Positions 10,008-46,109 of a DNA stretch of 64,000 nucleotides are shown here, in pieces. Location: positions 112,468,001 to 112,532,000 of the forward strand of contig OZ024745.1 of the NCBI GenBank assembly GCA_964016885.1, read 5' to 3'. Each line of letters starts with the position of its first letter. Positions within the stretch are counted from its first letter, which is position 1. The DNA comes from Eledone cirrhosa (Eukaryota). The position numbers were made by a program, and so were the translations under genes. The notes beneath the pieces were generated by a model that worked only from the letters and a program-made list of their open reading frames with translations, was not told the DNA's origin and made no database searches.

Positions 10008-10078
10008 TATTTTATTATGCGCATTTCAAAAACAAATATCATCATGGGATGATATTTGCGTTCTCATCAGATAAAATA
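10008..10078 (-). ncRNA. Type I hammerhead ribozyme
   Basis: TATTTTAT-CTGATGA-GAACGCAAATATCATC(CCAT)GATGATATTTGTTTTT-GAAA-TGCGCA-TA-ATAAAATA. Perfect 8-bp helix I, long helix II, palindromic minimal helix III. Confidence 0.9.
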
Positions 10079-11018
10079 GGGAGACATGATATGAAGCTTA
10101 AAAACACTTGCGAGCAGTGAAGTGTTAAATCCACATATGAAAAATAAAATAAGATGGATATATCAGATTGGGGAAAAAAAAAAAAAGAAGGAAGGGGGAA
10201 GGAAAACGTAAGGAAGAGGAAGAAAGAAAATAAAGGATGACGGGGGAGGAGGAGTATAAGAAGGAAGGATTAGAGAGGAGGAGAAATGAGTGAGAGAGAG
10301 AGAGATACTGTCTCACAGAGAAAAATAAAAAAAAACCGTTGTAAGATAATACATAATTTTTTTTTAAATTTTGAAATTAAAAGTTAATGAGGTTTATGAA
10401 TGGTGATGTTTATGATTAAAGGAATTAAGAATAGTATTTATTTAAGGTTTATATATTGAAGGGTTTAATAATATGTGCGAAAAGGAATTTATTAATATGT
10501 ATTATTAAAATTAAAATATTAAGGAGATAAGGTGAATGAAGAAGAGATTAAATGAATTATGAACTTAGAGCAATTAGTTAGGGTCTAAGTTTGTTTCTAT
10601 GTATTGTAATATGAAAAAGTAAATAATAGGTTTAATACGAGCACGGAAGGAGAGAAGAAAGAAGAAAATTTAAGGAAGAAAAAATATATAACGTAAAAAA
10701 AAAAATATGTTGACAAAATTTACTAATGGTAATATTAGTATATATTAAAAATATAGTTTGTATGGCCAAGAATATAAGGAAAATGCTAATAATATGAATT
10801 AAGAAGTAATTGAGAAGTAAAAGTTACAGATTAAAGATTAGAAATTAAAAAAGAAAAAAGGAAAATAAGAAAAAAGGATGAAAAAGAAGAAAAATAGGGG
10901 ACCGCTAACGACATAGAATGAGTAAATTGTATAATATAATATACTGAAATAAGGTAGAAAGATGGGTATATTTGTAAAAGATATAAAAGCGTTTGAGAAA
11001 AAGAATATTTAAAACTAA

Positions 11019-11600
11019 TTAGGTAGTGAGATAATAGCTGTATACTTTATGGAAAGTTCTATGGGATTTATGCAAGCAGAGCGAAAATAAATCCGTACGT
11101 CTATTTATTATAGAATTAAAATTAGAGATAATGGTAAATTTCTCGGCTAGGCAGAGATTACATGTTCTGGATAGGGAAGAATTCTGGTAAGGAGAGGCGT
11201 TGCAAACCTTCCTCCAAGAAATGTTGTAGTTAATATTTTTGTTTTTTAAGGACCATATGAGTTCTGAGAGTGCCGTGTTAGTTCTTGTAAGTTGGTATTT
11301 AAAAGACGAATTGTGATTATAAAATCTTGCTTTAAAGGAAGTTGAAGTGGAACAAAAATAGGTAAAAGAATTAGTACCAGTTATAACCTTACATTCATAC
11401 ACTAAATTTTTATCAAGACATTGGTTATTAAGAGGACATTTAGTTCTAACAGGGCAATTACAATTACGATTAGAGAAATTACCAGAGTTATTAACAAGTG
11501 ACCTAGTATTATTTATAGAAGGAATTGGATTGGAGAAGTTATTTACGATAGGTGCTAAAGTTTCCTGATTTACATTGGTGTTATGAACATTTGACAAAGT
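11019..11600 (-). pseudogene. PLE GIY-YIG endonuclease fragment (CNC..CPL..C linker, possibly Naiad-like)
   Basis: CNCPVRTKCPLNNQCLDKNLVY...TYFCST...FKARFYNH...LSELIWSLK...CNLCLAEK. The YIG motif is decayed to YFC. Confidence 0.8.
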
Positions 11601-11619
11601 TAATATATATATATTTATA

Positions 11620-11757
11620 ACGAAGGAGGTGTGGTAAGAAACCAGATGGACCATAACGCACCAGAGTACTCAATACTTAGGGTAGTATAGTGGGTAATAG
11701 TCCAGAAATAGCCGTCGAAAAGGTTTGAGCTCTGCCGTCGAGGTTAAACATTTCCCT
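11620..11757. mobile_element. PLE-like terminal repeat family A: inverted tail plus one palindrome arm
   Basis: Matches 87-166, then jumps to the loop and right arm (GTCCAGAA.TAGCCGTCGAAA) of the 164-279 palindrome. Confidence 0.65.
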
Positions 11758-11789
11758 ATATATATGTATATATATATATATATATATAT

Positions 11790-12335
11790 GTCTCTGGACT
11801 CGGCATTTAATGCAGCAAATTAGATTTCTGCTTTTGCAGTTCATATTTGCATTTGGGAATATTTTTCCAGTTTTTGTGTTCATATATTGACCAGTATGTA
11901 TGAACTGACATGTGCCACATCGACTACCATTGCATTTAGATACAGTGAATGATTGGTCTTTGTTGTTAAGGTAACATTTTGCCTTTGTTAGTAATTGCTT
12001 CAAACGGTCTGTGATTAAACCTTTTAATTCATTATTTTGTGCAATGATCGATAGGTTTGCTTTGGCAGTGTTGAAGATATTCTGGTGACATGGGTTGTGT
12101 GTCATTATAAATGGTATGACCAGTTCTTGGTTTCTTCTTCCTTGGGTCATCCTAAGTTGTTGTATAGGTATTTTTATAGCCCGCTGTATGCCATTTTCTA
12201 TAAGTAGAGATGGTTTTTTTGTTTGAGCAAAAATTCTTGTTTGAGCAAAATTTCTCTCAGTTCTGTTAGGCGTTTGTTTCTGGTATTTGTATCTTCTACA
12301 ATGGTACAAATTCTTCTGGCTAGGCAGTATGGGAT
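11790..12335 (-). pseudogene. Second PLE fragment: linker and start of GIY-YIG
   Basis: IPFIMTHNP...KCNGSRCGTCQFI...MNCKSRNLICCIKC, typical of the PLE zinc-finger linker preceding GIY. Bounded by (TA)n. Confidence 0.75.
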
Positions 12336-43857: not shown

Positions 43858-44032
43858 ATTTGTTTCTACTTTTGGCACAAGGCCAGCAATTACCCAGTAC
43901 ATTACTGGTACTTTATTTTATCGACCACGTAAGGATGAAAGGCAAAGAAGTTGACCTCGGCGGGATTTGAACTCAGAATGGAAAGGGCGTCAAAGCATGA
44001 CGTCCGACCCTCTACCGATACTGCCAATCCAC
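43858..44032 (-). mobile_element. SINE family 1
   Basis: Matches the family consensus with a small internal deletion. Confidence 0.85.
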
Positions 44033-45224
44033 CTGGTTATATATCGAAGTTGTAGCTGCAATACAGCAGGTACTAACTGAATTGTTATATATATATATAT
44101 ATAGAGAGAGAGAGAGATAGATAGAGAGAGAGAGAGAGAGAGCAAGAGAGAGAGAGAGAGAGAGAGAGAGAGAGAAATGAGGTGTTAGAAATATGAAACA
44201 TGAATTATAGATAAAGACTAGGTAAATTAGAAACACAGTTATGATGTAGTTTACGGAAGACCCAGATGTTATACAAGTAGACCCTAAAAAGGAGCATTAA
44301 CATTAAGAAAGGCATGAACGAAACCAGATCTTTTGGGATTTCGATTTTGAAAGTAGGTTTATAAGTATTAAATTACATAAGTCCATTGTAGTTCGATTGG
44401 TGGCCGAGTGGGGTGGATTAGAGTTGGTGGAGATCCTGGTCTGAGGTTCGATCTTAGTCAGGCGATACCGGTAGGTTGTCTATGAAACATTTTAATTTTC
44501 CTTTTACAAATCTTAGAAAACCTGGCAAAAGTTTAGTGAGCACCCAATGTGGATTTTATATTTTATTTCATTTCATATTTCATATTTTGTGTTTAAATTT
44601 GATATTCTAATAGTTTATTATTGACATACCATTCTGTAGGTGTCCTGGTGGCTTAGTTACAGCTGATATGGTGTAGTTACAGGTTCAATATTTAGCTGAG
44701 ATTGTAGATTTCCTTTTATTTATTATTTTAACAAATGATATATATAACGTCAGTCATTGTAAGTTCTAATCTGACATACAGTCACATATATATGAATATG
44801 AGAAGACCAAATGATAGTTAATTCAAATATCACATACGCAGAGAGAGAGGGGGGAGGTGAGAGACAGAGAGAAATGAGGTGTTAGAAATATGAAGCATGA
44901 ATTATAAATTCAAATAAAGACTAGGAAAATTAAAAACAAAGTGAGGATGTATTTAGGTAGTGGGTGAGGTTTGGGTTTTCGTTTACTATTATTCTGTTGT
45001 TGAGTAGAGTTGTGAGAAAATAGACACACACACACACATACACTCACACACACACACACACAGACTCACATATATAAAGAGATACATGTACTCACGCGCA
45101 AACACACTACACTTAGGAAATATCTGAGTAAATTCCCAATTAATCGTTTGGGGTGCTAACTATATTGTATTGTGTGGATAATTGGCTGTATTATTTCATA
45201 TGAGATATATCAAATATATCATTT

Positions 45225-45347
45225 CCCAGACGACTCGTTTCATTATAAGATTTCTACAAGTTGGGTGAAATTTTACCAAGTTATGTAGAAGCTTGTATAA
45301 GATCAACAGATACTTATTCAAGTGGGCTCTTATAAATCTTCAGTGGG
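45225..45347 (-). ncRNA. Type I hammerhead ribozyme with ~95-nt branched helix II domain
   Basis: CCCA-CTGAAGA-TTTATAAGA[two hairpins]TCTTATAAT-GAAA-CGAGTCG-TC-TGGG. Compensatory changes relative to 40480-40601. Confidence 0.85.
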
Positions 45348-45629
45348 TGCCCAATAATACTAATATTGATAACTAAATCAACATCAATATTTAGCGATAA
45401 TAACCATCAGTGCTTGAGGGAACTGCTAGGTTGTTAGTCCAACAGTTCTAAAGAAAATCTCACACTGTCCCGAAAATGGGAGGAAGGAGGCAACCGCCAA
45501 AAACAATACATGCGCAGGTCAAGAATTCAAGCCACGTGCTAAGAACTCAATTGGATATGAAAAAATAACCATATGTGCGCATTGTTTTAGGACACATAGA
45601 TATTTTCTCGGGCAATATATATATATATA

Positions 45630-45755
45630 GCTGTCGAAACGGCCGGAGCTCAGTCGTTGGGATCCTAACTCTTTTCCCATTACCCACTCTACTAACCAAA
45701 GCATTGAGTACTCTGGTGCGTTATGGTCCACCTGGTATCTTACCACACCCTCTTT
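45630..45755 (+). mobile_element. PLE-like terminal repeat family A, diverged copy starting at the putative HHR 3' half
   Basis: GTC-GAAA-CGGCCG...CATTACCCACTCTAC...GAGTACTCTGGTGCGTTATGGTCCACCTGG. Lies between TA tracts. Confidence 0.6.
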
Positions 45756-46048
45756 ATTTTATATATATATATATATATATATATATATATATATATATAT
45801 ATATATATATATATATGTGTGTGTGTATATATATATATATATATATATATATATATATACAGAGAGAGAGAGAGAGAGAGAGAGAGAGAGAGAGAGAGAG
45901 AGCAGGATGTAGTTACGGAAGACCCAGACGATATAGAAGTAAACCCTAACAAGGAGCATTAACATTAAGAAAGGCATGAACGAAACCAGATCTTTTGGGA
46001 TTTCAACTTTCCTATAACCATATATAAATATATATTTATAAAACTTTG

Positions 46049-46109
46049 TATTTTATCTGATGAAAGCGTACCAAAGTTTTGGTACCCTTGAAATATATAT
46101 AATAGAATA
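46049..46109 (+). ncRNA. Type I hammerhead ribozyme
   Basis: TATTTTAT-CTGATGA-AAGCGTACCAAAGTTTTGGTACCCTT-GAAA-TATATA-TA-ATAGAATA. Helix I 5' strand is identical to that of 10008, but helix II is unrelated. Confidence 0.9.

Follow-up and report, generated by a model that had tools for sequence, protein, structure and literature searches.

Penelope-like elements as the source of hammerhead ribozymes in the genome of Eledone cirrhosa, and the ends of their short copies

Why should eight hammerhead ribozyme motifs, mostly with unrelated helix II sequences, lie within 36 kb of one genome? We addressed this question in a stretch of 64,000 nucleotides from Eledone cirrhosa (GCA_964016885.1, contig OZ024745.1, positions 112,468,001 to 112,532,000 of the forward strand), hereafter the window, whose motifs between 10,008 and 46,109 had been listed in a preliminary description. 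The motifs are very probably of Penelope-like element (PLE) origin, namely type I hammerheads in the pseudo-long terminal repeats (pLTRs) of several PLE families and in non-coding derivatives of these. In five families (A, B, H1, N, and C), the short copies stop at a family-specific 5' position and rarely at the cleavage site. The best explanation, which we consider likely, is that the motifs are pLTR hammerheads of PLEs and that the short copies are (TA)n-primed complementary DNAs (cDNAs) of uncut RNA.

The cores in the window begin at 10070(-), 21796(+), 32027(+), 33761(+), 39648(-), 41310(-), 45343(-), and 46057(+), each number being the first base of the core; the earlier numbers were the low ends of the motifs. 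All eight have CUGANGA, GAAA, and UH in type I order on the stated strand. A descriptor requiring four of five pairs in helix I, three stacked pairs in helix II, and the closing pair of helix III was passed by six: 10070(-), 32027(+), 39648(-), 41310(-), 45343(-), and 46057(+). Dinucleotide shuffling of the window, the control named in the preliminary description, left 0.6 ± 0.8 matches (1-kb blocks, n = 60, maximum 4), and five scrambled cores gave 0-1; an earlier descriptor had found five motifs, against about 0.5 in shuffles. Helices I, II, and III can form in six of the eight. The motifs at 21796 and 33761 fail because the inverted arm of their own element has replaced the 5' strand of helix I. 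Thus, the core sequence was confirmed at all eight positions, and an intact motif at only six. In intact copies of family A, helix I is present and covaries between subfamilies (AGAUUC/GAAUCU and GGCUUC/GAAGCC).

The eight motifs represent seven families: 21796 and 33761 are one family, and 10070 and 46057 have helices I and III in common. A (TA)5 tract lies within 104 nt of six motifs and at 255 and 272 nt from the other two, for which "embedded in (TA)n" was too strong. Helix III is fully palindromic at 10070, 32027, and 46057 and partly so at 41310 and 45343, as had been noticed. Unconstrained folding recovered the hammerhead fold only in part, with z-scores from -2.5 to +0.6, and we therefore counted folding energy as no evidence. 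The output of an inverted-repeat finder was swamped by (TA)n, and a PDB sequence search returned no meaningful match.

We then estimated abundance from 59 evenly spaced 10-kb stretches (590 kb) of the 2,996-Mb assembly. The descriptor matched 48 times, against 3 times in the reversed sequence, 5.4 ± 2.7 in 15 shuffles, and 0-3 when the core was scrambled. The bootstrap density was 0.58-1.10 motifs per 10 kb; net of chance, it is about 72 motifs per Mb, or roughly one per 14 kb. The genome total is estimated at about 2.2x10^5 hammerheads (roughly 1.5-3.0x10^5). The 48 motifs comprised 11 multi-member clusters (36 motifs) and 12 singletons; (TA)4 was found within 300 nt downstream of 40, compared with 24% of random sites, and helix III was at least 75% self-complementary in 34. 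Exact genome-wide matches numbered 69,540 for one full Hydra-type scaffold (control 0), 89,371 for the 3' half of the Hydra-type scaffold, and 31,535 for a 23-mer of family A; exact tail matches were 12,082 for A, 7,995 for N, and 2,679 for B. The controls ranged from 0 to 9 across these searches. Predictions from the sample came near the three large counts (60,932, 86,320, and 35,543) and were poor for two small ones (5,078 and 15,233, from 1 and 3 matches). A local cluster was rejected, because, with 6 motifs in 64 kb, the window is as dense as the genome on average (48 in 590 kb), and the idea of a special concentration of motifs here falls. The proposal of a very large and diverse population of PLE ends was borne out, with parents found and copy numbers in the tens of thousands for each family, and the suggested retrozyme-like elements exist as family D, a tandem unit without an open reading frame (ORF). 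Close pairs among the 48 motifs were one same-strand pair of a single family versus four head-to-head pairs; the tandem arrangement needed by forms with a palindromic helix III is therefore rare.

The parent elements identify most of these families. On the same strand, hammerhead 39648 lies 209 nt beyond an endonuclease frame at 39854-40501, and hammerhead 10070 lies 967 nt beyond one at 11037-11507. Two motifs behind same-strand GIY-YIG frames had been noted earlier; the arrangement was found, but the domain was not called by Pfam, which was blank for both window fragments and both parent frames. Judged by their protein motifs, L078, L083, and L085 (natural copies, given by locus number) have a single ORF for reverse transcriptase (RT) followed by a GIY-YIG-type endonuclease, the layout of endonuclease-bearing (EN+) PLEs. 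Homologues of the parents are proteins named RT-domain.

L078 is a complete natural copy of family N, made up of a truncated arm in inverted orientation and an open frame of 1,238 codons between a 5' and a 3' pLTR that each contain the hammerhead, with (TA)n on both flanks. Hammerhead-bearing pLTRs, an inverted truncated arm, and an optional tail, also EN+ PLE traits, are found in L078 and in families A and N. The frame of L078 contains DKSG at 539, YVDD, CX4CXXC (CIDKKCITC at 1112), and YIGET, and is therefore of the Neptune/Nematis type, a single joint label defined by a DKG motif and a CX2-5CxxC linker before the endonuclease. Among 150 scored copies, the N endonuclease frame is 96-100% identical. 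Among named homologues, an Octopus vulgaris RT-domain protein comes closest to the N protein (66% identity). An annotated O. vulgaris gene model for a dynein regulatory complex subunit isoform also includes a stretch 79% identical to the N protein, covering 17% of the query, which is either a captured PLE exon or an annotation artefact. In sequencing runs of two other organisms, 26-30% of the sampled N words occur, which may point to close relatives of the family in other species.

Family H1 has two parents, L083 (760 codons) and L085 (715 codons), with the motifs RLRW, DKT, CxCX5C, CxxC, and CxH. L083 bears the marks of the Hydra clade (RWK-like motif, DKT, CxCX5C linker, CxxC, CxH, and no CCHH) as set out in section 11 of Craig 2021 (PMC8557442). 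In 11 of 33 matches, the H1 frame is followed after about 1 kb by the hammerhead. Of the 13 loci of family B that were read, two (L331 and L333) have a Hydra-type endonuclease at a distance of 1.3-1.5 kb upstream. The Hydra linker and C-terminal motifs occur in B, and the linker in A, which has a Hydra-type endonuclease at the arm head in L041 and an identical start of the 3' untranslated region (UTR) in L042. In family A, the distance from endonuclease to hammerhead is about 2.7 kb, including a stretch of 1,825 nt that is 93% alternating pyrimidine-purine repeat. Long TA/TG tracts of this kind lie within the 3' UTRs of both Hydra families (A, L041 7325-9150 and L042 7632-9150; B, L331 and L333) and are copied into both arms of palindromic inserts. 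They may seed the (TA)n targets of these elements, which could explain nested islands; microsatellite seeding is also a subject of papers on snakes.

The motif at 46057 was assigned to the Hydra clade by its H1 hammerhead scaffold alone. With the N and H1 proteins as queries, tblastn did not reveal an ORF belonging to family C, D, or 46057 upstream of these hammerheads, and no parent ORF of C was found in the 13 of its 16 loci examined. In family D, the tail of L301 runs on into the upstream sequence of L299, giving a period of 696 nt from two loci; the longest open frame is 66 codons. Being a tandem unit that has a type I hammerhead and no coding sequence, D resembles the non-LTR (long terminal repeat) retrozymes. 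No two-hammerhead array typical of them was seen in 7 self-aligned loci or in 14 loci, and the D unit is longer. In summary, three families are Hydra-clade PLEs (one by scaffold alone), to which A is added; N is of the Neptune/Nematis type, D is retrozyme-like, and for C no parent was found. The anticipated link to RT/GIY-YIG parents was thus made for N, H1, B, and A, and not for C, D, and 46057.

The ends of the short copies carry the main result. End offsets were counted from C3 of the core, and loci were selected by tail sequence. For family A, we examined 70 loci in the first 37 Mb of C1, with 45 inverted partners; four locus pairs that are duplicates or two arms of one insert were kept, and their removal shifts the counts by a few. 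The 5' ends of the inverted arms fell at -8 to -1 in 28 of 45 cases, with none between -44 and -8 and none of the 45 at the cleavage site, +39. Direct arms ended at -8 to -1 in 22 of 70 cases and at +38 to +40 in one. Against an even spread over -60 to +60, this 5' wall has a binomial p of about 1e-22. At the 3' side, long-tail arms end at about +129 and their inverted partners mostly at +53 to +60. Head-to-head A junctions number 4,920 genome-wide (control 0).

Most read-through copies of A, in both subfamilies, have TATA at -36 (outliers at -30, -38, -39, and -43), and the two subfamilies keep this position although the intervening sequence differs. The wall at -6 therefore falls 30 nt below TATA. 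This label, like CCAAT, Inr-like, YY1-like, and NRF1-like, denotes what we take to be a match to a promoter consensus. A splice acceptor behind the A wall was rejected, because the second subfamily has no AG at -6/-5 and keeps the TATA spacing, and because the junctions show no common upstream exon.

The other families have walls further upstream. In B, 11 of 30 copies end at -71 to -73 and one at the internal TATATATA. In H1, ends at -69 to -77 were found in 6 of 17 copies, and 6 of 13 head-to-head pairs, chosen by eye, average -66 to -72. Family N ends at -60 to -74 in 7 of 50 copies, beyond the reference in 10, and near the cleavage site in one; its 3' ends lie at +262 and +205, a tail of 57 nt. 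In a sample biased by the query, 7 of 13 C copies end at about -80. CATATG at the wall is common to B, C, and the H1 copy of the window. Copies cut at the cleavage site on the 3' side were also rare: 1 of 21 D-type, 0 of 70 N-type, 0 of 35 H1, and 0 of 18 B matches.

The palindromes differ in arm length. Of 45 A palindromes, 24 have a short-tail arm that extends further 5' than the long-tail arm, and 13 show the opposite; in L078, the short tail is on the full-length arm and the long tail on the truncated inverted arm of 1,409 nt. From the geometry of these 24 palindromes and of L078, it follows that neither arm is a fold-back copy of the other.

We propose the following mechanism. The element protein would cut both strands of a (TA)n target and prime one cDNA on each of them; the two start sites would lie below the ribozyme, with 57-75 nt between them. 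Each pLTR presumably has a promoter at a fixed distance above the hammerhead; a cDNA primed on the 5' pLTR would cross the uncut hammerhead and stop at the predicted transcript start after 60-340 nt. Joining of the cDNA ends would give head-to-head palindromes, and loss of one cDNA, solo units. The ribozyme would be a passenger in short copies and would probably cut at another stage, as a dimer or with help of the protein; most dispersed copies would be inactive. Two-strand priming with run-off at the RNA 5' end, which we read from the arrangement of the copies, has in our judgement a slightly better than even chance of being correct. It would agree with the in vitro behavior of the anole PLE, in which both strands are extended from two starts on uncut RNA.

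Several observations weigh against this account. The ends were sampled within the first 50 Mb of a single chromosome. Three direct arms of A (L187 and L274/L276; two are duplicates) end at +37 to +39, all overlapping helix I, and the B loci L312, L328, and L329 end at or next to the cleavage site; the latter have one common foreign repeated element upstream with the B tail and are probably a single old chimera that was then multiplied. In one case in the window, that of the remnant at 40591-40479, the end is within 1 nt of the remnant's own cleavage site, and the N insert is joined to it by its start. Either a deletion or a switch of template to the end of a self-cleaved RNA may lie behind this fusion. 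The extra base at true junctions is G in four, C in four (explained by overlap), A in one, and T in one, so a cap-derived G is not demonstrable. In A, the wall and the start of helix I are at the same base, and the B and C walls carry ATATG, which could pair with (TA)n. The arm asymmetry could have been produced by later deletions in the middle of palindromes, and several of the N ends are places where the alignment breaks off at internal repeats. Finally, the Rfam check proposed in the preliminary description was carried out on the window and three short motif stretches, and no hammerhead was reported among the matches listed: none matched at E<=10 in any of the three stretches, and for the whole window at E<=1 there was none among 150 of 190 matches, those 150 being microsatellite-driven noise of the miRNA type.

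Within the same PLE origin, the palindromes might instead arise by self-priming fold-back or from an antisense template, the walls being sites of RT stalling or microhomology. Junction palindromes of the rotifer Penelope were interpreted as self-priming (PMC3846280), many A junctions have 1-8 bases in common, and the wall positions in A, B, and C just described would fit as well. We nevertheless regard this as unlikely. Fold-back cannot yield the arm geometry of the 24 A palindromes and L078; the H1, B, C, and N walls lie 60-85 nt above the ribozyme, clear of helix I; those of H1 are arm-to-arm rather than (TA)n joints; and a better ATAT tract inside B was used only once in 30.

A quite improbable alternative is that the short copies are independent elements resembling retrozymes or short interspersed elements (SINEs), which are transcribed, self-cleave, circularise, and re-insert. 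The ORF-less unit of family D, whose tail continues into its own upstream sequence, the fixed length of the B and C solo units, and the few ends at cleavage sites are what it would lead one to see. On the other hand, the upstream promoter-like region is missing from solo units of B, C, and A, which correspond to portions of longer copies; their junctions vary from copy to copy, they are not bounded by cleavage sites, and tandem arrays are rare. This alternative is probably true only for family D.

That the motifs act on host RNA, by cleaving pre-mRNA from sense introns, and are kept for that purpose, is very improbable. Their sheer abundance (~70 per Mb) and the 4-bp helix III of intact A copies, which could act as monomers, speak for it, but in most families helix III is short or palindromic, a type reported inactive as a monomer (PMC4209133), and many copies are mutated or without helix I. 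No host exon was recognised in the window. Chance matching in AT-rich repeat DNA can be dismissed: although about 5 of the 48 sampled matches are expected by chance and Rfam gave no match, it is refuted by the shuffle, scrambled-core, reversed, and exact-match controls above, and every motif of the window belongs to a multi-copy family.

The features of the window are collected in the table below.

Table 1. Hammerhead-bearing elements and remnants in the window.
Feature	Positions	Strand	Remarks
Family H1, 3' part, Hydra-clade PLE	9963..11669	-	87% to natural copy L085 over 1,228 nt
H1, disrupted endonuclease frame	11019-11669	-	94% aa to L085 residues 559-715
H1, hammerhead	10070-10016	-	Behind ~1-kb 3' UTR; tail closing in (TA)n
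H1-tail head-to-head palindrome, small	9651..9816		Centre in helix II; no CUGANGA core
Family A insert	21709..21860	+	Inverted tail 21709-21788 fused to direct arm from core 21796-21834; helix I lost, one mismatch in helix III
Family B solo unit, Hydra clade	31955..32126	+	96% to L331; embedded in (TA)n; spans fixed family 5' position (-72), hammerhead 32027-32072, and tail
Older family A head-to-head insert	33700..33862	+	Core 33761-33799; helices II and III kept, helix I lost
Young family N PLE, 5'-truncated, Neptune/Nematis-type	39394..40463	-	96% to L078 over 1,082 nt; 97.5% aa; endonuclease frame, promoter-like region, hammerhead 39648-39614, long tail closing in (TA)n
Additional hammerhead remnant	40479..40721	-	70% to family D; core mutated to CUGAUAA at 40591
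Family C solo unit	41093..41390	-	Hammerhead 41310-41245; 98% to L353; starts at frequent family 5' position ~-80
Family D, part of ORF-less ~696-nt tandem unit, retrozyme-like	45113..45619	-	Hammerhead 45343-45229 with branched helix II of 95 nt
Hydra-type hammerhead	46049..46109	+	Core 46057-46101; H1 helix I/III scaffold

Further hammerhead remnants of other families lie at 31764-31790 (+), 32308-32275 (-), 21550-21680, and 45615-45660. Their cores are mutated to CUGCUGA and CAGAAGA, or they are copies of the 3' half only, one of them palindromic; intact relatives are present in L171, L087, and L009. In a broken non-LTR retrotransposon at 57350-60931 (-), which presumably resembles Dong/R4 elements, a frame of 579 codons matches RVT_1 (E 3e-24), and a region of restriction-like endonuclease type is also present. 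The frame of 183 codons at 52087-52638 (-) is blank in Pfam; we take it to resemble the C-terminal restriction-like endonuclease of another non-LTR element. An abundant SINE-like repeat, present in many copies, occurs at 1380-1406, 33360-33480, 35760-35815, 37846-38251, and 43900-43970, with heads tandemly duplicated near 37850-38250. Outside the window, L011, L015, L016, L017, L023, and L032, which lie in the first 3 Mb of C1, are duplicates on the kilobase scale and nearly identical, which suggests a subtelomeric segmental repeat.

The motifs are of a known kind: PLE hammerheads, their (TA)n targeting, and an octopus Hydra family have been published. What is new here is the end map of the short copies, with head-to-head arms starting at two 3' sites. 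The literature covered, to which subscription journals, Repbase notes, and preprint supplements do not belong, contained neither a census of cephalopod hammerheads nor an explanation of PLE inverted arms by two-strand priming. We tentatively suggest, at a little short of an even chance, that this genome combines the largest hammerhead population reported with a fossil record of two-strand PLE priming, joined arms, and self-seeding Hydra TA/TG tracts. If so, joined cDNAs would account for the inverted arms and the one-sided tail of all EN+ PLEs, and a protein dimer would prime both cDNAs from two start sites on uncut RNA. The maps predict the starts to the base (A -6, B -72, H1 ~-70, C ~-80, and N -60 to -85) and predict that cleavage is unused in making the insertion template. 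Since tens of thousands of short inserts per family allow end maps at base level, the role of the ribozyme and the mechanism of the arms become testable. The young family with a naturally intact frame (L078) is a ready substrate, and the strand bias of intact copies in introns would gauge activity in vivo.

PLE hammerheads that cleave as dimers were reportedly described in a 2017 paper, and Schistosoma mansoni is said to have tens of thousands of hammerheads, which would rival the density here. The minimal hammerheads of PLEs (PMC4209133, where dimer dependence is described) are similarly of type I, with a long helix II and a short palindromic helix III, and occur mostly as dispersed single copies, with opposite-strand pairs 100-700 bp apart. 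Family A differs in its 4-bp helix III and family D in its 95-nt helix II. The counts given there are ~9,000 for Xenopus and ~4,000 for the coelacanth, against ~2x10^5 here, with descriptors that differ. The axolotl, with 126,247 motifs (PMC7229834; preprint 10.64898/2026.07.22.740005), is also below our estimate. Family D shares with the non-LTR retrozymes of the same two sources a tandem unit that has no coding sequence, a single type I hammerhead per unit, and a genome rich in PLEs; it differs in its unit of 696 nt, compared with 170-400 nt, and in having no two-hammerhead array. Among cephalopods, an Rfam scan of a squid gave 235 hammerheads (PMC6962438), and the main text of a recent curated octopus repeat annotation (PMC13282606) does not contain "hammerhead" or "ribozyme". 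Earlier work on the topic also includes PMC2377424.

The closest experimental counterpart is the anole Poseidon PAc in vitro (PMC11167929), which likewise has two internal starts below the hammerhead and AT-rich targets. There, both strands are cut and extended, the starts correspond to the tail, uncut RNA is the template, the ribozyme is active only with the protein, and its cleavage is unnecessary for insertion. Inverted arms and 5' ends are not treated there ("inverted" occurs once, in an unrelated use), and our end map covers other clades. PLE clades, inverted arms, the tail, and the (TA)n bias are set out in PMC8557442; the role of the hammerhead and the origin of the inverted arms are called open there, in PMC11167929, and in PMC3846280. 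The Neptune/Nematis PLEs share with L078 the DKG-type motif, the CX2-5CxxC linker, the GIY-YIG-like core, hammerhead pLTRs, the inverted truncated arm, the optional tail, and a microsatellite target; family N differs in its frame of ~1,200 codons with an Asn-rich stretch and in its 57-nt tail. The Hydra-clade PLEs (PMC8557442) share the C-terminal endonuclease, the RWK-like, DKT, CxCX5C, CxxC, and CxH motifs, the canonical hammerhead, and (TA)n targets. Their elements are described as <3 kb, whereas A and B have long TA/TG tracts in the 3' UTR (~2.7 kb in A). The supplement of the same paper includes Hydra-1_Obim from Octopus bimaculoides, with 4 copies ending at one site. Our elements are likened to Hydra-1_Obim by description; here, several families are present, with at least 69,540 full-scaffold hammerheads.

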